Part shown: positions 4,328-57,985 of the stretch, piece by piece
Numbering within the stretch: the first letter of the stretch is position 1
Layout of the letters: each line of letters begins with the position of its first letter
Origin: an uncultured Clostridium sp.
GTDB lineage: Bacteria; Bacillota; Clostridia; TANB77; CAG-508
NCBI GenBank assembly: GCA_930990555.1
Contig: CAKNPW010000001.1
Span: 35,007-99,006, forward strand
Reading direction: 5' to 3'
Length of the DNA: 64,000 nucleotides
Program-made: the position numbers and the translations under genes
The notes under the pieces: model-generated
The model's input: the letters and a program-made list of their open reading frames with translations, nothing else
Told to the model about the DNA's origin: nothing
Database searches by the model: none

Positions 4328-4942
4328 CTAATTTTCCTTTAAGATTCCTTTTTCTATAAATTTAATTTCTTTTAAAAAGTCTTCTCTAGCTTCTTTTAAA
4401 TCTTTATATTTTAATGAAGCCACTATTCTTCTTCTAGTAATAGCAAATAATATTTCTATTACTAGTTTGAATTCTTCTTCATCTTTTATGTTTAATATAT
4501 CTTTATTTTTTTTGTATAAATCTTGTAATGTTTTTTCTAATCTTTTATTCATTTCTTTTTTTCGTATTAACATTAAATTATCACTCGTTTTAATGTTTTC
4601 AAATATTTGTCTAAATAATTTACTATTCTTTCTTATTTTTCCGACTTCTATTAAATGATCATAAAGATAAATAAAAATTTTTATTATATTACCATTTTCA
4701 CGTTCTATAATTTTATTTAAATTTTTTTCCATATCTCCTATTTTTAACGACATGATATATTCAAATAAATCTTCCTTATCTTCAAAATATTGGTAAAAAC
4801 TGCCTCTTGCTATTTCTGCATCTTCAACAATATTTTTTATAGAAGTTTGTTCTATAGGTACTCTTGCAAATTCTTTATTTGCAGCTTTTAATATTTTTTG
4901 TTTCTTTTCTTCTGGCAAATTGAAGAATGTATTTGTTGGCAT
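4328..4942 (-). CDS. TetR/AcrR family transcriptional regulator
   Basis: 204 aa with an N-terminal HTH (IKNIVEDAEIARGSFYQYFEDKEDLF). Sits directly upstream of the ABC exporter pair on the same strand. Confidence 0.8.
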   Translation of the reverse strand: MPTNTFFNLPEEKKQKILKAANKEFARVPIEQTSIKNIVEDAEIARGSFYQYFEDKEDLFEYIMSLKIGDMEKNLNKIIERENGNIIKIFIYLYDHLIEVGKIRKNSKLFRQIFENIKTSDNLMLIRKKEMNKRLEKTLQDLYKKNKDILNIKDEEEFKLVIEILFAITRRRIVASLKYKDLKEAREDFLKEIKFIEKGILKEN

Positions 4943-5044: not shown

Positions 5045-5086
5045 AAGTGACACCGTATCATATATTATATATGACACAGTGTCATC
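5045..5086. promoter_or_regulatory. Putative TetR operator: perfect palindrome TGACACAGTGTCA (5072-5084) plus an upstream GTGACAC half-site (5047-5053)
   Basis: Seen directly in the intergenic region upstream of the tetR/ABC operon. Confidence 0.45.
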
Positions 5087-5152
5087 TGTCAATCTGATTT
5101 TTGTAAATTTTGTGTGAACAAATTTATGTTATAAATTGTTTAAGTGAATTTT

Positions 5153-5196
5153 TAATATTTACAAAATGAACTTTAAGCTCCGTCCCTAAAGTTCAC
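5153..5196. repeat. Family-B palindromic repeat, copy B2 (inverted relative to B1)
   Basis: atttacaaaatgaactttaagctccgtccctaaagttca; contains the TAA stop (5173-5175) of the Mur ligase gene. Confidence 0.7.
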
Positions 5197-6489
5197 CAAT
5201 TCCTGGAAGGTGTTTCCACGTTCTTCGAAATTTTTAAAAAATCCATAGCTTGCTGATGCTGGGGATAATAAGCATATCATATCTTTTTTGGTTACTTCTT
5301 TTGCTTTTTTTACTGCCTCTTCTAAATTATTTACTAAATAACAATGCTTATTATTTCCTTTTTCTTGTAATTCTTTATAAATCCTTTTTCCAGTATCTGG
5401 CATTAATATTAAGTTTTCTAATTTTTTATTTTGTAAAATAAAATCTTCTAAATTGGAATAATCTATTTTTCTATCCATTCCTCCTAGTATTAAAGTGTTT
5501 ACATTTTTTAATGCTTTTACTCCTTCTATTGTGGTTTCTCCTATTGTAGAAATTGAATCATCATAATATTTAACTCCATCTTTTGTAGTTACATATTCTA
5601 GCCTATGTGCCAAGCCTTTAAAATCCTTTAAGGCTGATTTAAATTCTTCATTTGATATTTTATATATATTACTACAAATATAGTACGAAATCGCAATATC
5701 AAAGAAATTATGCTCTCCTACTAAATTGGTTTCGTCCTCTAAAATTTGTATACTATTATTTTCTGTTATTATAGTTCTATTTTTTATATAATCATTAATG
5801 CAGATATTATTTTTTATTTTGCTGTGAATGTATTTCTTGCAAGTTTCTCCATAAATTAATATATCATCATATTTTTGAAATTTATTAATATTAAGTTTTG
5901 CATTAATATAGTTTTCAAATATTTTATAATGATCTAAATGATCTGGATATAAGTTCAAGATTACTGCTATATGTGGTGAATATCGTATAAATTCTAGTTG
6001 ATGACAACTAAGTTCAAACACTATTTTTGTATCTTCATTTATTTCGTTTATTGCATTAAAACAAGGAATTCCAATATTTCCTACTAATACAGTATTGGGA
6101 TAGTATTTTTTTAAGATAGTATAAGTAAGACTAGATGTTGTACTCTTTCCTTTAGTTCCAGTTATTCCTATTATCTGACTAGCTAATATTTTTATAAATT
6201 CTTCGGTTTGTGAGGTCAATTTATTAATATCTACCACAGTTGCATCTGCAACTATTCCTGGGCTTTTAAATATTAAATCATAGTCATTCAACTCTTCTGG
6301 TTTACTTATTTTTTTAGTTCCTTTTATTTCTGGTAGTTCCTTTCGGTCTAAAATTCCTAACTCATTGCATTTTATATTGTTGTTTTGAATAAATTGCAAT
6401 GTAGAAATTCCTTCTTTTCCTAATCCCCAAATTGCTATTTTTTTATTTTCTAAATCTTTTTTAAACATGTTTAATATTGTGCTTTTCAT
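5173..6489 (-). CDS. Mur ligase family protein, MurD-like (candidate MurD2, outside any dcw cluster)
   Basis: 438 aa. N-terminal Rossmann motif IAIWGLGKEGIS resembles MurD VxVxGLGxSG. Mur ligase central-domain P-loop GITGTKGKSTTSSL. Size equals E. coli MurD. Overlaps the upstream gene by 4 nt. Confidence 0.6.
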   Translation of the reverse strand: MKSTILNMFKKDLENKKIAIWGLGKEGISTLQFIQNNNIKCNELGILDRKELPEIKGTKKISKPEELNDYDLIFKSPGIVADATVVDINKLTSQTEEFIKILASQIIGITGTKGKSTTSSLTYTILKKYYPNTVLVGNIGIPCFNAINEINEDTKIVFELSCHQLEFIRYSPHIAVILNLYPDHLDHYKIFENYINAKLNINKFQKYDDILIYGETCKKYIHSKIKNNICINDYIKNRTIITENNSIQILEDETNLVGEHNFFDIAISYYICSNIYKISNEEFKSALKDFKGLAHRLEYVTTKDGVKYYDDSISTIGETTIEGVKALKNVNTLILGGMDRKIDYSNLEDFILQNKKLENLILMPDTGKRIYKELQEKGNNKHCYLVNNLEEAVKKAKEVTKKDMICLLSPASASYGFFKNFEERGNTFQELVNFRDGA

Positions 6490-7859
6490 ATTATCTCACT
6501 CTTCTTTAACATTTCTTTGTAATGTTCTGGTACATTGTTTTCTGGATTATAAAACTTGTTATATTTATTTTCTTGGTTTATATATTCTTTGTACTTATTT
6601 GTAGTTTTATAATATTTATACAATAAAGGTAGTTCTTCATTATTTGCTTCATATTTTTTTATTGTTTCACAAATTGCTATATTTACTTCATCTCTTGAAC
6701 CAACACATTCAAAAGGCTTATTTTTTTGTATTCCTGATAGCATTTCCATTGTAGCTTTTAAATTTTCTTTTTCTAATAAATCTTCTCCAAAAATATTTAT
6801 CATATCTTCTTTTTTCATAAATGGAGATAAAATTATATATACAAATAAACATTTTGGGCAGTTTCCACACCATTTGTTTTCTTTGCTTCCAGCATTACAA
6901 CTTTTGAAAATTTTATAAAATTTAGGTAATTTTGCAAAATGTTTTGCTATTTGATATTCGCTAATTGGTCTTAGTAAACTAAAATATTCTATTTCATCTA
7001 ATATATTTTCTTTTACATACTCATTAAAATCTTGTTCAAATTCATAGCTTTTTGAATATTGATGATTTACTTCTTCTGCATATATTGTAGACTCGTTTGC
7101 ACTTGCTTCATTTGATAATACTATGTATTTTTTCTTATTTAAATATGCAACAATTAATGCTGAAAAAGCTACAATTGATGAAAATGGTGTATGTCCATTT
7201 AAATATCCTTGTTTATTTAGTTCTAACATATTTTTATCTAAAGTTCTTTTTACATAACATCTTTGATTCTCATTATATCCTGCTGTTTTTACTGTTCCTT
7301 CTGTTGCACCTCTTGGATTTATTACATAGCACATATTATTTTTAAAATCATCTTTAATTACATCTAATGTAACTATAGAATCTTTTCCTCCACCGATTGG
7401 AACTAAAGCTCCAGTAAATTCTTCTGCTGTATTATTTGAATTGTCTTTTGTTAATTTGACTGTTCCTGCTATTATATTCATAAATTCATCTATATTTGTT
7501 TTTATTTCATTTTTATAAAAGAATTCGCCAAGTCCATAAAAATATAACTTTTTCCACCAATTAATCTGTTTTTGATTTAAATATATGTTTTTTATAGTTA
7601 CATGTGGCGAGCAAGTTATTTTCCAGTAACTTACAAGTTCTACCATTCCTAAATTGAAAACCATATTTTCTAATAGTTCTTTATTTTCATTTTCACTTAC
7701 AGAATCACTCATTTTAGGAATTGTCCATGTTGGATTAAATTTCGAAAGTCCTACTATTTCAAATTCATAACTTATTTTATATTCATTCTCATTTTCTTCT
7801 ATTTTATACCAGTTATATGAAAATTCTGGATATTTTTCTCTTAATTCAAAAAAATTCAT
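6486..7859 (-). CDS. PP-loop (N-type ATP pyrophosphatase) superfamily protein with QueC-like C-terminal Cys cluster and an N-terminal ~160-aa extension; candidate MurL-like partner
   Basis: 457 aa. PP-loop-like motif LVPIGGGKDSIVTL. C-terminal C-x9-CGNCPKC zinc-ribbon-like motif as in QueC. Translationally coupled to the Mur ligase gene. Confidence 0.45.
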   Translation of the reverse strand: MNFFELREKYPEFSYNWYKIEENENEYKISYEFEIVGLSKFNPTWTIPKMSDSVSENENKELLENMVFNLGMVELVSYWKITCSPHVTIKNIYLNQKQINWWKKLYFYGLGEFFYKNEIKTNIDEFMNIIAGTVKLTKDNSNNTAEEFTGALVPIGGGKDSIVTLDVIKDDFKNNMCYVINPRGATEGTVKTAGYNENQRCYVKRTLDKNMLELNKQGYLNGHTPFSSIVAFSALIVAYLNKKKYIVLSNEASANESTIYAEEVNHQYSKSYEFEQDFNEYVKENILDEIEYFSLLRPISEYQIAKHFAKLPKFYKIFKSCNAGSKENKWCGNCPKCLFVYIILSPFMKKEDMINIFGEDLLEKENLKATMEMLSGIQKNKPFECVGSRDEVNIAICETIKKYEANNEELPLLYKYYKTTNKYKEYINQENKYNKFYNPENNVPEHYKEMLKKSEII

Positions 7860-7872
7860 GTTTATCTCCTTT

Positions 7873-7910
7873 CGGATTTAAGAACGTTCCGGGATTTGGG
7901 GACGTTCCTT
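7873..7910. repeat. Family-A repeat, copy A1 (tandem ggatttaagaacgttcc and gggatttggggacgttcc)
   Basis: Core GGGATTTGGGGACGTTCC, shared with seven other loci in the window. Confidence 0.7.
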
Positions 7911-8044
7911 TTTTCCCTTTTTTCTACTATGCTATTATATTGTAATTACTTTGTAAAAGCAACTATAATTATACTATTTACTTCAAAGAAAAAAGGAAGA
8001 AAACTTTTACAAGTTCCTTCCCTTATTTTGAGGTATTTCCGTCC

Positions 8045-8251
8045 TTACTTTTTAAGTGCAACCAAAATTGCCGCTATGACAAATGTTAATACAAAGCAGG
8101 ACCAGCCTGAGGCCAGAGCCCATATTATTTTTAAGTCTCCCATTGCTGCTGTGACAACTGTTGGGCCAATAATTCCGCCAATTCCACAACCTATTGATGC
8201 GCCAAGTATTACTTCAAAGTTATCACTTATTCTCCGCCACATTCTTTTCAT
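8045..8251 (-). CDS. Small Gly-rich membrane protein (GlsB/YeaQ/YmgE-like, or bacteriocin-like)
   Basis: 68 aa, two hydrophobic helices with GxxxG repeats (GASIGCGIGGIIG). Strong RBS GGAGGT 8 nt upstream of the ATG. The overlapping 229-aa plus-strand ORF is low-complexity and judged spurious. Confidence 0.5.
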   Translation of the reverse strand: MKRMWRRISDNFEVILGASIGCGIGGIIGPTVVTAAMGDLKIIWALASGWSCFVLTFVIAAILVALKK

Positions 8252-9595: not shown

Positions 9596-9850
9596 GGGTC
9601 ATAGCATCACCTCCTAAAAATTCAAAAAGACACATCTCCTTAAAGGACGACGTGTCGTGGTACCACCTTTATTTACAATTTAATAATTGCCTCATTTAAG
9701 CTTGTTCGTAGCTACACGTTAATTACTATAAGAAATGTAATTCGTAAATTTATATACTAGCAATTTCCACCATGTATTGCCTCTCTATAAGTTACTATAA
9801 ATTACTACTTGGTTTCTTTTTAAAACATAATTAAATTCAATTGTATTACT
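9596..9850 (-). promoter_or_regulatory. T-box riboswitch leader (Tyr specifier UAC) with intrinsic terminator
   Basis: On the minus strand: AGAGAG stem I motif followed by CAAUACAUGG (UAC codon plus A). T-box sequence AAAGGUGGUACCACG (rc of 9652-9668). Terminator GACACGUCGUCC...GAGAUGUGUC followed by UUUUUG. Confidence 0.8.
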
Positions 9851-17487: not shown

Positions 17488-18549
17488 TTACCTTTCTTCT
17501 TCACTTTTAATTTGAGTTTTATAATGTACATATCTTCCATATATATTATTTAGTTGTTCATATTCTTCTTGTGGGGCATTTCTTTTTTGCATTAACTTTA
17601 ATATTTCTTGATAATCAGATATAAAAGATGTTTCTCCACTACCTATTACATATTCATAATTTGAAGCAAATCTTTCACTTTGTATAATATCTAAAATTTC
17701 TGGCATTGTTTTTCCTTCTGTTGGTATTTTTTTAGGAGGAATAGCCGAATTTTTACTTCTAATATATAAGCTTATTCTTTCTGGATCCATACCTTCTAAA
17801 CATTCGGTAACAGCTAAATAAGATTCATCATGTCTATGTAAATCTGTTAATTTAGTATCTCCTTTACCATTATATACAAATATTGCAGTTTCATATCTTT
17901 GATGTATAGCTAGAGCACTTACTAAATCCCCGACAGCCATAACATGTAAATCTAATTGGTAACCATGTTCTTCTAATTCTTTTTCATCTACTCCTATTAA
18001 ACCTTGTTGTAATGAAGGTGCCACTTCTATTAAAATATTATATCCTTTTTCCATTGCATAGTTTCTAATATTAGCAGCATGATCATATGAATCTATTCCT
18101 GTTAAAGCCCCAAAATGCGTTCTGTCTTTTTCTCTAATTTCGTCTGCATCAGATCTATACTTTTTATATAAATCTGGATTTATAACAACATATACTTGAT
18201 TTTGTGGATTTATTAATTCTCTTAAACTAGTTTTTCCCGCACCTGTTTGAGATACTAATACAGCTGCAATCGGATTTTTTGAAGGTTCTTGCCTTGCAGA
18301 AAATGTAATAGTCATAGCTTTAAACAAAGTCAACAAATATTCTTTGTCTGTTTGTCTTGTTTCTAGCATTTGTTTCGCTAACGAATTACTAATATTGTCT
18401 GATATGTAAGGATTCACCCTTCTTTTAGCAAATTTTAATATTTCTTGTGGTGTATCTGGTAATTCATTTATAAAGTCTGGATTTAATTCGTGTAATAATT
18501 CATTTAATGTTTCTTCTGAAATCTCTCTTGTTTCATTATAGTCAATCAT
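17488..18549 (-). CDS. Zeta-toxin-like P-loop kinase (copy 2)
   Basis: 353 aa, Walker A VSQTGAGKTS, shared RHDESY motif with its paralog. Preceded by a translationally coupled small helical protein. Confidence 0.5.
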   Translation of the reverse strand: MIDYNETREISEETLNELLHELNPDFINELPDTPQEILKFAKRRVNPYISDNISNSLAKQMLETRQTDKEYLLTLFKAMTITFSARQEPSKNPIAAVLVSQTGAGKTSLRELINPQNQVYVVINPDLYKKYRSDADEIREKDRTHFGALTGIDSYDHAANIRNYAMEKGYNILIEVAPSLQQGLIGVDEKELEEHGYQLDLHVMAVGDLVSALAIHQRYETAIFVYNGKGDTKLTDLHRHDESYLAVTECLEGMDPERISLYIRSKNSAIPPKKIPTEGKTMPEILDIIQSERFASNYEYVIGSGETSFISDYQEILKLMQKRNAPQEEYEQLNNIYGRYVHYKTQIKSEEER

Positions 18550-18758
18550 ATTATTTCTTTCTTCTTTCCTTTTAATACTCTTTTTATAATATTTGAATTA
18601 CCTTTACAAATTTCAACTTTAATTTTTTGTAATACTTCTATTTTTTGCTTTAGTAATTTATTAGCTTTTTGACTCTTATTTACTGCATACTCATTCATAA
18701 CTGTTGCCAGTTCATTTTCTATAATTTCTATAGCAAGCTCTATATATTCTTCCCTCAT
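18546..18758 (-). CDS. Small helical protein, putative epsilon-like antitoxin (copy 2)
   Basis: 70 aa. Overlaps both neighbours by 4 nt (ATGA). Confidence 0.4.
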   Translation of the reverse strand: MREEYIELAIEIIENELATVMNEYAVNKSQKANKLLKQKIEVLQKIKVEICKGNSNIIKRVLKGKKKEII

Positions 18759-19759
18759 TGAATGCTCCTCCTATAAATTTCCTTAAGTTGCTCAAATTGT
18801 TCCTTTGGTGCCTTTCTAGCTTCCATTTGTTTATATACTAATTCATATCTTTCTTTAAATTCTTTTTTTGTATTGTCATTATCTTCATCTCTAACAACTT
18901 TAAGGGTCTCTATTATATCACAAAATCTCTCAGAAGGAAATACTTGTGTTGGATTATATTCATTTGCCAAATTTCCACGTATATATACATTAATACTACT
19001 TATTCTTTTATCATTCATTATTTCTTCAACGTTTGGTATTAATGCTTCATATGATTCATCATGTCTTCCTACAGATGTTAATTTAGCAGTTTTTAATCCA
19101 TGTATTATTTGTAGCTCATATCTTTCATGTACTGATAATAAGCTATTTAACTTACCAACAGCTAAGATATAAACAGAAATTTTATAATTATTTTTTACAA
19201 GTTCTTCTGCATCAACTCCTAATAATCCTTTGTTTTGGGATGGAGCTGATTCTTTTATAATATTATATTTATTTGCTATTGCATATTCGTATATATTATC
19301 CGCATGGTCATACGCATCTGGTCCAGTTAAAAATGGATATAATACTTGATACTCATTTGCAATATCTTTTGCATCATACCTAAAGTGTTTATATTTATCT
19401 GAATCAACAAAAATATAATTTTCGTCTTCTCTTAAAAGTTTTGCAGTTAAATTGCTTTTTCCACTACCTGTTTGTGCTGCAACTATTTTTATTTGAGGAT
19501 TTTCTACTCTCTTTTTATTATAAAAAGTAATTGCCATAACAAAGAAAAAGGTTCTTAAATATTCTTCATCACTTAATAATTTTTCTTTCATTAATTTTTT
19601 GGTAGGTTCATCTACATTTTTAGAAAATTGAACTTCTTTAATTCTAGTTGCATATTTTAATAAATTTTCTGGTTTATCTGGCAACATTTCTATTATTTGG
19701 TTAGGTATTTGCTTTATTATTTTATCGTATACTTCTTTTAAAATTTCTCTTCTTTCCAT
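18755..19759 (-). CDS. Zeta-toxin-like P-loop kinase (copy 1)
   Basis: 334 aa, Walker A AAQTGSGKSN; paralog of 17488-18549. Confidence 0.5.
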   Translation of the reverse strand: MERREILKEVYDKIIKQIPNQIIEMLPDKPENLLKYATRIKEVQFSKNVDEPTKKLMKEKLLSDEEYLRTFFFVMAITFYNKKRVENPQIKIVAAQTGSGKSNLTAKLLREDENYIFVDSDKYKHFRYDAKDIANEYQVLYPFLTGPDAYDHADNIYEYAIANKYNIIKESAPSQNKGLLGVDAEELVKNNYKISVYILAVGKLNSLLSVHERYELQIIHGLKTAKLTSVGRHDESYEALIPNVEEIMNDKRISSINVYIRGNLANEYNPTQVFPSERFCDIIETLKVVRDEDNDNTKKEFKERYELVYKQMEARKAPKEQFEQLKEIYRRSIQ

Positions 19760-30820: not shown

Positions 30821-32296
30821 TTAATTTTTTTCAAATAGTGAAATTATAAATGTATCTCCACTAAATGGATGATAGTATTTTTCCTTATCTTTTATAACTG
30901 TAGTTCCGTCCATTTCGTTTATATAATCATACATATTAGTGTCTCCTGCATCTATTACCCAAATTCTACCTGTGTAATTTTCTATCTCTTCTAAATTGTT
31001 CACAACCTTCATTTGTGGTGCAAATGCTCCATATGCTTTTTCTACAGTCCAATTGTCTTTATTGTAAAAATATTGTTTATTCTCGTCAAAATTTATTGCA
31101 ACAGAACTACTAGGTCCAATTGTTGTATAAACAAATATATCTTCTGGTTCAACTTCTGCTTGAATGTCCTCCATAGGCTTGCTATTTTCTTCTGAATATG
31201 ATTTATTCCATAAAGTAATCCCATTCCATATTGTTAATCCAATTAAACCAATGATAACTATTATTTTTATTAGTCGACTTTTTTCAACAGATAATATATA
31301 TGCAAAAGCAAATATAAATAATCCCAACATTGGTAACATATATCTTGGTATAAATACTGCTCTTATAAATGATATTAATAGTGTTACAAGTATTACAAGA
31401 CCACAAGTTGTTAATGCTATTGTAACTGGTCTTATTTTTTTCTTATCTTCTAGATATAATTTATGTACTCTTAAAATCATATACACTACTATAAATAATC
31501 CAAATATAGCAGGCAATCCAGAATTTATACTATCTAAGAAGAAAAATTCTATAATTTGAGTTATAATATCTGGATAATTTACGCTAATCCAAAATCCTCC
31601 AGCAACTCTTGTTGATTGTAATAAAAATATTACTGCCCCTGGTAAGTAGCAAATAATTTGTATTGCACCATATATGAACCATCTTTTTAAAAGTTCTTTC
31701 TTTTCTCTTACAATAAAAAATAGTAGTAAGATATTTATAATTCCTATAGTAAATAATGCAAAATAATGTGTATATGCACTACATATGCTTGCTATTGCAA
31801 ATATTATCCAGTCCTTTTTATTATTATTTTTATATGCTAAATATGCGTATACTGCTGTAATTGTTACAAATAACATGCTTAGGCTGTACATTCTTATTTG
31901 TGAACCATAATGCATTGTAACAGGCAATAACAATAATATTAAATTAAAATAAAAACTTACTTTATCACCAAATTCTTTTCGTATTTTTACAAATGAAAAT
32001 ATTGCTAACAAAACAATAGGAATTACAGAAAATATTCTTAGTGCTATAACACTAGTTCCACAAATTAAAGAATATATCTTTAATAATATGTAATATAAAA
32101 TAGGATGTACATCATTTATTGTTGAAATAAATAAGTTTCCCCAAGGTTGTCTTGCAATTCCTACTGAATATGCTTCATCAAACCATAAGCTATTATTAAA
32201 ACATAGTAAAAGAGGGGCTATTGCTATTAACACAATAAGCCCTATATTTATTTTATTTAAATGTTTCTCTATAAAATTTTTCATTGTCTTCTCCAA
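30821..32296 (-). CDS. GT-C fold membrane glycosyltransferase (ArnT/PMT-like, GT39/83-like)
   Basis: 491 aa, about 11 TM segments, FDEAYS motif in the first extracytoplasmic loop, C-terminal soluble domain. Confidence 0.55.
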   Translation of the reverse strand: MEKTMKNFIEKHLNKINIGLIVLIAIAPLLLCFNNSLWFDEAYSVGIARQPWGNLFISTINDVHPILYYILLKIYSLICGTSVIALRIFSVIPIVLLAIFSFVKIRKEFGDKVSFYFNLILLLLPVTMHYGSQIRMYSLSMLFVTITAVYAYLAYKNNNKKDWIIFAIASICSAYTHYFALFTIGIINILLLFFIVREKKELLKRWFIYGAIQIICYLPGAVIFLLQSTRVAGGFWISVNYPDIITQIIEFFFLDSINSGLPAIFGLFIVVYMILRVHKLYLEDKKKIRPVTIALTTCGLVILVTLLISFIRAVFIPRYMLPMLGLFIFAFAYILSVEKSRLIKIIVIIGLIGLTIWNGITLWNKSYSEENSKPMEDIQAEVEPEDIFVYTTIGPSSSVAINFDENKQYFYNKDNWTVEKAYGAFAPQMKVVNNLEEIENYTGRIWVIDAGDTNMYDYINEMDGTTVIKDKEKYYHPFSGDTFIISLFEKN

Positions 32297-54961: not shown

Positions 54962-56461
54962 CTAATACATGTAACATTCTATTATTAATGTATTATTTAC
55001 AATTCCATAACCATTTTCGTTTTCTTGAACAAGATATTCTACTAATAATTCTTTAGTTAAATTTATTGTTTTTAAGCTTTTATTTGTATAAAAATTTATT
55101 AGTCCATCTGCAGACCAATCACATCTTAACGCATTATATGTTAAGACTGACTTTCTAGAAATATTTTCGAAGTATGTTTTACTATCTTGACCTTTTACCG
55201 TATAAAGTGCTATATTCTCTATTTCTATATTGTTTTTAGCCTCATAATCTTCTATATATTCTTCTATATTTTGTACTTCTTGTTCTTCATATTTATTAAC
55301 TAATTTATGTTGATATGTAATTATTATACAATTATATATACTGACAATTCCATAGATTACTAAAATTAATCCAAATATTTTTCTAAAAATTTCATCTTTA
55401 TTTTCCATTATTAGACAAAGTAATATAAAACCTAACATACTTCCAATAGAATAATGTAATCTACCTGTATAAAAACTTGATAATGTTCCTAATGAAACTA
55501 AAAAACCACATATTATACTCAAAATAATTATACATATGGATTTTATTGCTAGAAATTCCTTACTTTTCGTTTTAATATCATACACTAACGTACAAATTAA
55601 TATTAAACTTAAAAAAATATATAACAGATTTATTGGAAATAATCCAATATTTTCTTTTAAAATCGTAGTAAAATTGTTAAATATATATTTCATATTTGAA
55701 AATATATTAGTGATGCTACCTACTCTAGCTTGAACTTGTCCTGTTATGTTTCCAACAATATTTACTATCATCATGTTAATACATACAGCTATAAGTGCTA
55801 TAATACCTGCAAATAAGATATTTATTATTATCATTTTAATATTTGTTTTTATGTCTTTTTTAGTACCATTAAGTTCTACCTTATTTTTTAATAAGCTTAA
55901 AACAAAAGTTGTTATAATAAGGAAACCTGCTGTTCCTTGATATGCTATAACTCCTACAATTGCTAATAATATTGCCAAAATAATGTCTTTATTACTTTTT
56001 TTATTTACTATTAAATTTGCTGAATAAATAAATAATAATAAGCTTAATGCCATTACAATTGATTCTACAAAATACATATCTTCTATATACATAAAATTAA
56101 ATATAGTAAAAAATAAAGCAATTACTATAAATATTTCTTTCTTTAAACTTACTTCTTTATTTCTTAAAACTATATTTTTTAATTTTACAACGCATATACA
56201 AGATATTAGTAGTGCACCTAATAGTGTAGTTATTACATATACTTCTATTGGTATATTTAGCTTTGCAAATATCATAGTAATAATATACATTATAAGTCTA
56301 CCGTCTTTTAAGGACCAATTTGTAGCATATGTTTCATATCCCACATTCATAATATTATATGTATCTGTTGAATAATGCATAGTAATCCAATTAATATACA
56401 TTATAACTGCTAAAATAAATATTACAAAAAAGATTAACAAATCCTTTTGTCTTTTCTTCAT
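54962..56461 (-). CDS. Polytopic membrane protein, paralog 1 (unknown family, possibly an envelope glycan polymerase or transferase)
   Basis: 499 aa, about 12 TM helices, about 110-aa C-terminal soluble domain. Paralog of the upstream gene. Confidence 0.5.
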   Translation of the reverse strand: MKKRQKDLLIFFVIFILAVIMYINWITMHYSTDTYNIMNVGYETYATNWSLKDGRLIMYIITMIFAKLNIPIEVYVITTLLGALLISCICVVKLKNIVLRNKEVSLKKEIFIVIALFFTIFNFMYIEDMYFVESIVMALSLLLFIYSANLIVNKKSNKDIILAILLAIVGVIAYQGTAGFLIITTFVLSLLKNKVELNGTKKDIKTNIKMIIINILFAGIIALIAVCINMMIVNIVGNITGQVQARVGSITNIFSNMKYIFNNFTTILKENIGLFPINLLYIFLSLILICTLVYDIKTKSKEFLAIKSICIIILSIICGFLVSLGTLSSFYTGRLHYSIGSMLGFILLCLIMENKDEIFRKIFGLILVIYGIVSIYNCIIITYQHKLVNKYEEQEVQNIEEYIEDYEAKNNIEIENIALYTVKGQDSKTYFENISRKSVLTYNALRCDWSADGLINFYTNKSLKTINLTKELLVEYLVQENENGYGIVNNTLIIECYMY

Positions 56462-56476
56462 ATCATCACCTAAATT

Positions 56477-57985
56477 TTAAATATATGCTAAGAAGTATAG
56501 AATATCGTCCATTATTACAAAATTTCCTTCATATCCTAATTTTCTTTTTGCTGCATATTCATAAAATAACTCCCTATTTGGATATGCTTCTAAATAATTA
56601 TCTGCAAAATTTCTTCCAGTATAAAAATTAATTGTTCCTATTGCAGACCACGTACATGCAACACCATCATATGTAAGGACAGATTCATTTTTTATTTCAT
56701 CAAAATAACCATATTTTTTCATGTTTGATAATTTAAAATATCTAGCCTCTGTAACTTGAACATTATTTTCTCTTTCATATGTTTCTATGTATTCCTCTAA
56801 TCCTTCACACTGTTCTTTTTCTAACCCGTTTACTTGTTTATGTTGATATAGTAAAGATATTGTATTTACTATTGTTATAAGATTATAAGCAATTAATGTT
56901 GTTATAATTAAATATTTAATAATAGTCTCTTTTTCAAAAATACTTGTTTTACAAAATAAATAAACAAATATTACTCCTATTAAAGCACCCACAGGCACAT
57001 GAATTCTTCCTGTATCATAACTTGCAATACTAACAATGCACATTGCAAAAGTTATAAGAATAGTTAATACAAAAAGGAATATTATATTAAATACTACACC
57101 ATTTTCCTTTGTTTGAACTTCATAAATTCCAGCCATAAGTGTAATAATTAATACAAAAATCATCATTAAATAATTTGGAAACAATCCACAATTTGCAATA
57201 AACATTGTATTAAATACCATTGTTCCAAAGTTTCTTAAAACATAAATAAAATTTTCTAGTAAATTTTGTATTCCATTTAATCTTTTTTGCATAGTTCCTG
57301 CAATTTGAGTTGCAATATCAATCTGTATTAAATTAGCCAAAAAAGAAATTATTGTTATTAAAATTATTACTCCAAAATCTTTTAGTATTTCCTTTATATT
57401 TTTCCCATTTTTTGCAATAGAAAATACTACACCATATAATGCAAATAAGCCTATTGTACCTTGATAGCAAAAAGTTGCTATTATAGCCAATAATCCTGCC
57501 TTAAGTGCATATAATTTCTTTTTATATATAATTTGTTTTACTGCTAATATATAAAGTAGCACACTACATGCCATTACTGTTGCTTCTACAAAATATAAAT
57601 TTTCTACAAACATAAAGTTAAATATCGTACAATATGATATTAAAATCGCAATAACTTCCTGTAATTTTGTTTCTTTTTTGCAAAATTTCATTATCATATT
57701 TTTAAGAACTATAACTGCTATACATGATATTATTAAGCCTATAATTGTTAATGTAACTACATAAACTGTTATGGGAACATTTATTGTATTTGCAAGCATT
57801 CCTATTAAAAACATAAATATTCTTCCATCACTTAAAGAATTATTTATTGCATATTTTTCATATCCTATATTCATTATATTATATGTATCTGTTGCATAAT
57901 GCATTGATACATAATTCCAAAAAACAACCCCTGTTATTACAAATAAAATAAAAAATAGTATTAAATTTTTTGTTTTTGATTTCAT
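56477..57985 (-). CDS. Polytopic membrane protein, paralog 2
   Basis: 502 aa. Shares WNYVSMHYATDTYNIMNIGYEKYA-type N-terminus and C-terminal LTYxxxxCxWSAxGxINFYT motif with 54962-56461. Confidence 0.5.
   Translation of the reverse strand: MKSKTKNLILFFILFVITGVVFWNYVSMHYATDTYNIMNIGYEKYAINNSLSDGRIFMFLIGMLANTINVPITVYVVTLTIIGLIISCIAVIVLKNMIMKFCKKETKLQEVIAILISYCTIFNFMFVENLYFVEATVMACSVLLYILAVKQIIYKKKLYALKAGLLAIIATFCYQGTIGLFALYGVVFSIAKNGKNIKEILKDFGVIILITIISFLANLIQIDIATQIAGTMQKRLNGIQNLLENFIYVLRNFGTMVFNTMFIANCGLFPNYLMMIFVLIITLMAGIYEVQTKENGVVFNIIFLFVLTILITFAMCIVSIASYDTGRIHVPVGALIGVIFVYLFCKTSIFEKETIIKYLIITTLIAYNLITIVNTISLLYQHKQVNGLEKEQCEGLEEYIETYERENNVQVTEARYFKLSNMKKYGYFDEIKNESVLTYDGVACTWSAIGTINFYTGRNFADNYLEAYPNRELFYEYAAKRKLGYEGNFVIMDDILYFLAYI

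Follow-up and report, generated by a model that had tools for sequence, protein, structure and literature searches.

A 64,000-nt stretch of DNA from an uncultured Clostridium sp. (GCA_930990555.1, contig CAKNPW010000001.1, positions 35,007 to 99,006), hereafter the window, carries two overlapping genes that most likely form a translationally coupled murL-murD2 operon for the two-step synthesis of the D-glutamate (D-Glu) of the peptidoglycan stem peptide. The initial annotation had proposed such a MurD2/MurL pair, and the follow-up supported it. The product of the upstream gene matches the MurL profile NF041275 (E = 1.7e-77) and has the Pfam domains of MurL; the ligase shares with MurD2 of Xanthomonas sacchari the replacement of two lysines of Escherichia coli MurD (K319 by isoleucine and K348 by arginine); and the order of the genes is the same. 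The MurD2/MurL pathway, described in Xanthomonas and regarded there as rare, is that of Feng et al. (2017). Its published distribution, as reviewed in PMC8788868 and PMC5808125, spans Gamma- and Alphaproteobacteria and rare actinobacteria, with 'low similarity' matches in cyanobacteria, a fungus and an amoeba, and the only MurL enzymes with demonstrated biochemistry are those of X. oryzae, Micromonospora and Salinispora (PMC8788868). The literature searched contained no report of MurL or MurD2 from Firmicutes or Bacteroidota; most matches to 'murl' there were misspellings of MurI. We assign the window pair to this pathway as a divergent Firmicutes member. The epimerase family is already recognized by Pfam, NCBIfam and UniRef, and a family search would return this finding.

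Both genes lie on the minus strand. The murL gene (6486..7859) encodes 457 amino acids from an ATG start and was called from the list of open reading frames (ORFs), NF041275, the Pfam domains MurL_N and MurL_epimerase_C and an AlphaFold2 model. The gene for the MurD-type ligase (5173..6489; 438 amino acids, ATG start) was called from the same list, the TIGR01087 profile, relatives in the PDB and signature residues, and the GLGKEG motif reported for it is present at residues 22–27. The junction reads ...ATAATATGAAAAGC, where the ligase start codon (ATG, 6489-6487) overlaps the murL stop codon (TGA, 6488-6486). This 4-nt ATGA stop/start overlap (6486..6489), which the initial annotation had described correctly, suggests translational coupling and recurs in four related loci (L005, L007, L008 and L088). 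The ligase had also been described as lying away from any division and cell-wall (dcw) cluster. This holds for the window, as a tblastn search of the 64 kb with 13 E. coli dcw proteins and MurI returned no murI and no dcw gene other than the ligase itself.

The protein encoded upstream is identified by its sequence as a MurL homolog over nearly its whole length. NF041275 aligns with residues 14–407 (260.8 bits; profile positions 11–401 of 447), and precomputed Pfam assignments place PF26299 (MurL_N) and PF26298 (MurL_epimerase_C) on the protein and on all its listed homologs. A local Pfam-A search yielded only sub-threshold matches to QueC and DUF6395, and a PDB sequence search retrieved no relative. 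A homolog from Claveliimonas bilis (53% identical) is named as a MurL epimerase in UniRef and as hypothetical in NCBI. We aligned the Firmicutes proteins with Bacteroidales fusion proteins, the annotated X. sacchari MurL (from a plasmid collection) and a Pseudonocardia homolog. Invariant positions include Y78, K80, G109 and E112 in the N-terminal domain; G156-G158, D160, S161, R205, G222-H223-x-P225 and E251/S253/A254 in and after the PP-loop; and N265-H266-Q267/S269-K270, S320-C321-N322, W330-C331/C334/K336-C337 and K381-PFECVG-387 further on. The motifs common to the window protein and X. sacchari MurL are GGGKDS, NGHxP, SNExSA, NHQxSK, SCN...WCxxCxKC and KPFECVG. The PP-loop and cysteine ribbon of the initial annotation are both there. 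The PP-loop GGGKDS (residues 156–161; 7377..7394, minus strand) is invariant in 41 homologs, as are all its residues but K159 once X. sacchari MurL is included. The ribbon C321-x9-C331-x2-C334-x2-C337 (6849..6899, minus strand), with all cysteines invariant and set in a QueC-like fold, is a predicted zinc site of the QueC type. The KPFECVG motif (residues 381–387; 6699..6719, minus strand) contains Cys385, invariant in the Firmicutes proteins, the Bacteroidales fusions, X. sacchari MurL and the Pseudonocardia homolog.

The ligase belongs to the MurD family. It scores 294.3 bits on the murD equivalog TIGR01087 (cut-off 212) and its only strong relatives in the PDB are MurD enzymes, which places it with MurD, as first annotated, and not with FolC, CapB or cyanophycin synthetase. 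X. sacchari MurD2 reaches 298 bits on the same model and, therefore, the model cannot separate MurD from MurD2. We turned to individual residues, numbered as in the E. coli structure (translation index minus 1, checked on K115), in a set of 72 full-length MurL-linked Firmicutes MurDs; X. sacchari MurD2 is the ortholog used for comparison and the assayed enzyme is that of X. oryzae. The equivalents of E. coli K115, E157, H183, K198, T321, S415 and F422 are kept in the window ligase and in 72/72 linked MurDs. Among them, K115 falls in the ATP-binding P-loop GTKGKST (residues 111–117; 6139..6159, minus strand), located by alignment with E. coli MurD. The position of K319 differs: it is isoleucine in the window ligase (Ile313, in the DSIST motif at residues 311–315; 5545..5559, minus strand), in all 72 linked MurDs and in X. 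sacchari MurD2 (I339), whereas the canonical MurDs of E. coli, Streptococcus agalactiae and Thermotoga maritima have lysine. A K319T substitution makes E. coli MurD accept L-Glu (PMC8788868). The change from K319 to isoleucine is the cleanest marker that the alignment reveals as common to X. sacchari MurD2 and the MurL-linked MurDs; its use as a family-defining feature of MurD2 would be our own proposal and not a published criterion. At the position of E. coli K348, the window ligase has Arg340 (codon 5470..5472, minus strand), equivalent to R358 of X. oryzae MurD2, whose role is described in PMC8788868; all 72 linked MurDs, like X. sacchari MurD2 (R367), have arginine at this site. The residue equivalent to L416 (F435 in X. 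oryzae) is tyrosine in the ligase and in most linked MurDs and phenylalanine in X. sacchari MurD2. In a neighbour-joining tree, built without support values, X. sacchari MurD2 is sister to a single clade that holds all linked Firmicutes MurDs.

We also examined how the two genes travel together. One genome per GTDB species was scanned, giving at least 600 stretches, of which at least 586 were confirmed; the linkage counts refer to the best 80 loci, read for 10 kb to either side. These 80 come from Clostridia (Lachnospiraceae, Oscillospiraceae, Ruminococcaceae) and Erysipelotrichaceae, and include cultured hosts such as Fumia xinanensis, Lacrimispora sp., Mordavella massiliensis, Hominiventricola aquisgranensis and Pseudobutyrivibrio xylanivorans. 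murL is followed by a MurD gene on the same strand in 73 of the 80 loci, with gaps of 97 nt or less and a median of −4 (from heuristic start calls); of the remainder, three are on truncated contigs and four have a solo murL. The window locus has its closest relatives in 'uncultured Clostridium sp.' metagenome-assembled genomes (MAGs) with 82–89% identity and on a metagenomic contig of 1.62 Mb (ERZ27273514:contig_1470); in these, the tyrS-murL-murD-tetR-ABC synteny is retained, as is the ATGA overlap. The pair is also carried by the Claveliimonas bilis genome that encodes BDZ78678.1. The pairing is not a chance juxtaposition, because the same order recurs in 73/80 related loci with such short gaps and the ATGA is kept in the closest relatives. 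Ratios of nonsynonymous to synonymous substitution rates (dN/dS) of 0.10–0.14, alike for murL and murD, place both genes under purifying selection.

In Bacteroidales and Lachnospirales the two proteins also occur as fusions. An exhaustive MurL search of 50%-identity representatives returned 2729 clusters at E ≤ 1e-3, of which 1168 reached E ≤ 1e-30, and about 35 of the best 150 cluster matches are 800–1250 amino acids long. All eight long proteins tested were MurL+MurD fusions, in both orders, one of them extended by an M20 peptidase. Their sources are MAGs of Bacteroidales/Bacteroidota and Lachnospirales, and NCBI names them only as MurD. The DSIST motif is present in three of the four fused MurD domains in the alignment described above, and the fourth (P0306) has DSASH together with an aspartate. 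Additional evidence comes from five Erysipelotrichaceae loci that have mraZ-rsmH-ftsL-pbp-mraY and the murL-murD pair 3–8 kb downstream. As mraY is not followed by a murD in these five loci, they are consistent with the murL-linked murD being the cell's MurD.

Several observations speak against the assignment of the window pair to the MurD2/MurL pathway. At 260.8 bits, the epimerase lies far below the NF041275 equivalog cut-off of 700 bits, although this model ('MurL_Xanthmoales, UDP-N-acetyl-alpha-D-muramoyl-L-alanyl-L-glutamate epimerase') was built from Xanthomonadales only and tests lineage as well as function: X. sacchari MurL scores 836.5 bits and the Firmicutes homologs all score about 255–265. 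Identity to X. sacchari MurL is about 27–33%. Most of the remaining points concern the ligase, and several suit an enzyme that is simply the organism's ordinary D-Glu-adding MurD, an alternative we consider unlikely. The window ligase has Asp183 (codon 5941..5943, minus strand, in the context LYPDHL) in place of the Glu197 that determines specificity in X. oryzae MurD2. Aspartate is the canonical residue at this position (E. coli D182), and an E197D substitution shifts X. oryzae MurD2 towards D-Glu (PMC8788868). The linked MurDs have glutamate here in 63/72 cases and aspartate in 9/72, X. sacchari MurD2 has E206, and the canonical enzymes have aspartate (E. coli, T. maritima) or threonine (S. 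agalactiae). Arginine at the K348 position also occurs in the canonical MurD of S. agalactiae and is, therefore, not exclusive to MurD2, and the L416 position is also aromatic in the canonical S. agalactiae (Trp) and T. maritima (Phe) enzymes. TIGR01087, as noted, is blind to the distinction. With a profile of the linked MurDs, S. agalactiae MurD scores 295 bits and X. sacchari MurD2 only 244 bits, so that overall similarity is higher to the canonical enzyme. Neither this profile nor the tree establishes a single MurD2 clade, and the shared features may stem from common origin or from convergence. Lastly, genes for a Dat-like aminotransferase and a D-Glu cyclase stand beside murL in some Lachnospiraceae; together with the 5-oxoprolinase genes found there, they indicate that free D-Glu metabolism is not absent from all murL genomes. 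Against an ordinary MurD, all 72 MurL-linked Firmicutes MurDs, the window ligase and X. sacchari MurD2 have isoleucine for Lys319, a replacement seen in none of the three canonical MurDs. The tight operon coupling and the fusions are more in keeping with an obligatory channel of two steps than with a role in repair, and other clades of MurL-linked MurDs with the aspartate (Pseudobutyrivibrio, L051, L074 and L077) also keep the pairing. In the literature, the organism-level mark of the alternative pathway is a genome without murI, dat and a second murD. Our tblastn searches returned neither murI nor a second murD in the window or the loci, which at some 20 kb per genome is uninformative for whole genomes.

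The epimerase raises its own alternatives. QueC and the related nitrile and amide synthetases form amides and nitriles by the same adenylation chemistry and match the protein in fold, so that the pair could make a different product, for example iso-glutamine by amidation of the activated alpha-carboxylate (an alternative to MurT/GatD), or could modify another peptide or cell-wall polymer. This is quite improbable given that the protein matches MurL over its full length and retains all motifs common with the Xanthomonas enzyme, that the ligase has the complete set of MurD substrate-binding and catalytic residues, and that the operon contains no glutaminase or ammonia-donor gene. Even less credible, to the point of being nearly dismissed, is an upstream gene that happens to adjoin murD and encodes an ordinary QueC, a PP-loop enzyme of tRNA thiolation or a defence protein resembling QueC (QatC/Cap9). 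The Pfam QueC match (PF06508) is weak (E = 0.015; 15.3 bits against a cut-off of 22; residues 273–338 only) and QatC and Cap9 are among the top structural matches. However, the profile check that the initial annotation had called for clearly favours MurL over this non-significant match, the protein has an additional conserved N-terminal domain, its linkage and fusion to MurD are conserved, and there are no queD, queE or queF and no Qat or CBASS genes nearby. These family and linkage results already contradict an ordinary QueC. A defence-system reading of the pair was rejected separately, as PADLOC returned no match.

How MurL could invert the glutamate is suggested by its predicted fold. The AlphaFold2 model, computed on 41 homologs, has a mean predicted local distance difference test score (pLDDT) of 90.1 and a predicted template modelling score (pTM) of 0.90, and Foldseek ranks QatC and QueC first among its structural neighbours. 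QatC, QueC and similar proteins are PP-loop ATP pyrophosphatases, which adenylate a substrate oxygen. The model shows the hallmark of this superfamily, a Rossmann-like fold with a PP-loop of the SGGxDS type. An adenylating fold fits the published ATP-to-AMP stoichiometry (PMC8788868): X. oryzae MurL uses one ATP, releases AMP, works unidirectionally from L to D and is proposed to form an alpha-carboxyl adenylate (PMC8788868, PMC5808125). By homology, the MurD2-type ligase would attach L-Glu in a first step. In a second step, and in line with the chemistry of X. oryzae MurL, the QueC-like PP-loop domain would adenylate the alpha-carboxylate of the terminal L-Glu (ATP to AMP and pyrophosphate). 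Adenylation would acidify the alpha-proton and allow a conserved base to invert the centre, directly or via an oxazolone. The candidate base is Cys385 of KPFECVG, possibly aided by His223, Lys270 or Tyr78/Lys80. The initial annotation had rightly noted an N-terminal extension, as about 150 residues precede the PP-loop, but it is not the unexplained oddity described there. It corresponds to MurL_N (residues 1–138; 7446..7859, minus strand), a domain with an RNase H-like alpha/beta fold. Because this domain is also present in Xanthomonas MurL and holds the invariant Y78, K80 and E112, sequence comparison makes it an integral part of MurL, and it probably helps bind the UDP-N-acetylmuramoyl (UDP-MurNAc)-dipeptide.

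The distribution of the pair bears on how the pathway is viewed. Reviews treat MurD2/MurL as a target for narrow-spectrum antibiotics, on the ground that few genera besides Xanthomonas and Stenotrophomonas are said to have it (PMC8788868, PMC5808125). The murL-murD pair is present in at least several hundred species-representative genomes, mostly of gut and rumen Firmicutes, and this breadth contradicts the narrow-spectrum premise. More tentatively, and with slightly less than even confidence, we propose that the MurD2/MurL route is the main or only source of peptidoglycan D-Glu in a large fraction of the Clostridia, Erysipelotrichia and Bacteroidales of gut and rumen, in places as one fused bifunctional enzyme, and that MurL is a QueC-type PP-loop adenylator that epimerizes via an acyl-adenylate with Cys385 as the base. 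If so, inhibitors of this 'pathogen-specific' pathway would also hit many commensals. NCBI labels the epimerase as hypothetical and the ligase as a D-glutamate ligase in such genomes, and metabolic reconstructions of commensals therefore probably mis-assign the origin of cell-wall D-Glu. Furthermore, the QueC-like fold offers a concrete mechanism for MurL, which both reviews describe as lacking known conserved domains (PMC8788868, PMC5808125).

Variations in genomic context were also recorded. The solo murL genes belong to high-GC Oscillospiraceae/Ruminococcus (L073, L078, L082 and L084) with no murD within 10 kb; they lie at about 10001-11390 in L073, L082 and L084, and a galE-like epimerase gene is next in L082 and L084. 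Other solo MurL-like genes are carried on Pseudonocardia plasmids with no Mur ligase nearby (L092:4848-6248, from Pseudonocardia alni pPaSha1; NZ_CP010991.1; NZ_CP011869.1), and their products, at 323 bits on the MurL model, have the conserved motifs intact. Examples of the fusions are L093:10001-13741 (P0329), P0167, P0201, P0306 and P0209, and one Bacteroidales form has a C-terminal M20 peptidase, with a C69 dipeptidase gene after it. In several Lachnospiraceae, murL-murD2 adjoins D-Glu-handling genes (L096:3003-8054, L015:9044-9856, L022:3249-4067, L038:9096-9902, L071:3770-9959 and L036:7489-8325). These encode a Dat-like class IV aminotransferase (212 bits on TIGR01121, below the cut-off), a D-Glu_cyclase (PF07286) and the PxpA/B/C subunits of 5-oxoprolinase; a GLUCM-like_C gene lies directly upstream of murL among them. 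Such neighbours may remove or salvage free D-Glu where the organism's MurD has no need of it.

Upstream of murL, a ribosome-binding site (AGGAG; 7866..7870, minus strand) was read from the sequence. A candidate promoter for the operon (TTGCTT-17-TATAAT; 7934..7962, minus strand) lies in a block conserved in L005, L007, L008 and L088; its −35 element is weak and the site is absent from the list of the promoter scan. Between them, just upstream of the ribosome-binding site, the 5' leader contains a GC-rich hairpin (7882-7907). The same four loci have related but rearranged hairpins around GGGATTT/AAATCCC. The hairpin resembles a terminator on the plus strand, yet there is no plus-strand gene at that place. 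The interval between tyrS and murL holds a hydrophobic ORF of 68 amino acids (MKRMWRRISDNFEVILGASIGCGIGG...; 8045-8251, minus strand) with a strong ribosome-binding site; identical contigs have it annotated as a gene, and no Pfam family matches it. A T-box leader precedes tyrS (9640-9824, minus strand; 88.2 bits, E = 3e-19). Because this score is just below the Rfam gathering score of 93, the scan of the window at gathering thresholds reported no RNA family. Downstream of the ligase, a perfect sigma-70 promoter (TTGACA-17-TATAAT) sits in a palindrome with 17-bp arms (5048-5092, minus strand). It precedes tetR (4328-4942) and starts a separate tetR/ABC-transporter unit, and the palindrome is probably the TetR operator of this exporter unit.

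Elsewhere in the window, two tandem paralogous ORFs (17488-18549 and 18755-19759, both on the minus strand) resemble Zeta toxins, the first through a precomputed Zeta_toxin domain and the second by eye; we saw no obvious epsilon antitoxin by them. The substrate that Zeta toxins phosphorylate, UDP-GlcNAc, is a precursor of peptidoglycan. Three membrane proteins, polytopic and about 500 amino acids long, two of them adjacent paralogs (54962-56461, 56477-57985 and 30821-32296, all on the minus strand), look by eye like glycosyltransferases of the ArnT/PMT type and are encoded near galE, a gene for a VanY-like carboxypeptidase and an SLT-domain gene.

Compared with known systems, the window epimerase has the MurL_N plus MurL_epimerase_C architecture and conserved motifs of Xanthomonas MurL, and the annotated murL of X. 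sacchari likewise lies directly upstream of, and overlaps, a murD-type gene. The X. sacchari protein differs in the spacer of its cysteine ribbon (x15 versus x9), and the window host is a low-GC Firmicute, from a phylum outside the published distribution (PMC8788868, PMC5808125). Like MurD2, the ligase has the MurD fold and catalytic residues, arginine at the R358 position, an aromatic residue at the F435 position, the isoleucine of X. sacchari MurD2 at the K319 position, and a gene directly after murL. Unlike MurD2, it has aspartate at the E197 position and alanine for proline at the P433 position, and its similarity to X. sacchari MurD2 (about 26% identity) does not clearly exceed that to a canonical MurD from a Gram-positive bacterium. 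The canonical enzymes (E. coli; S. agalactiae, 3lk7; T. maritima, 4buc) align with it over their full length, and it resembles them in its above-cut-off TIGR01087 score and in keeping the residues that bind ATP, Mg and UDP-MurNAc-L-Ala; it differs in the loss of Lys319 to isoleucine, in a gene location outside any dcw cluster (within the window) and in translational coupling to murL. QueC, the 7-cyano-7-deazaguanine synthase, is also a PP-loop ATP pyrophosphatase with a C-terminal zinc ribbon. The window protein has an extra N-terminal domain of 138 residues and about 110 extra C-terminal residues, and its predicted substrate and outcome differ, with epimerization in place of amide or nitrile formation. 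MurT/GatD, which amidates the D-Glu of lipid II in Gram-positive bacteria, likewise combines a protein of Mur-ligase fold with a second enzyme whose target is residue 2 of the stem peptide. However, MurT falls outside the MurD equivalog, GatD is a glutaminase, and neither domain is present in the window pair.

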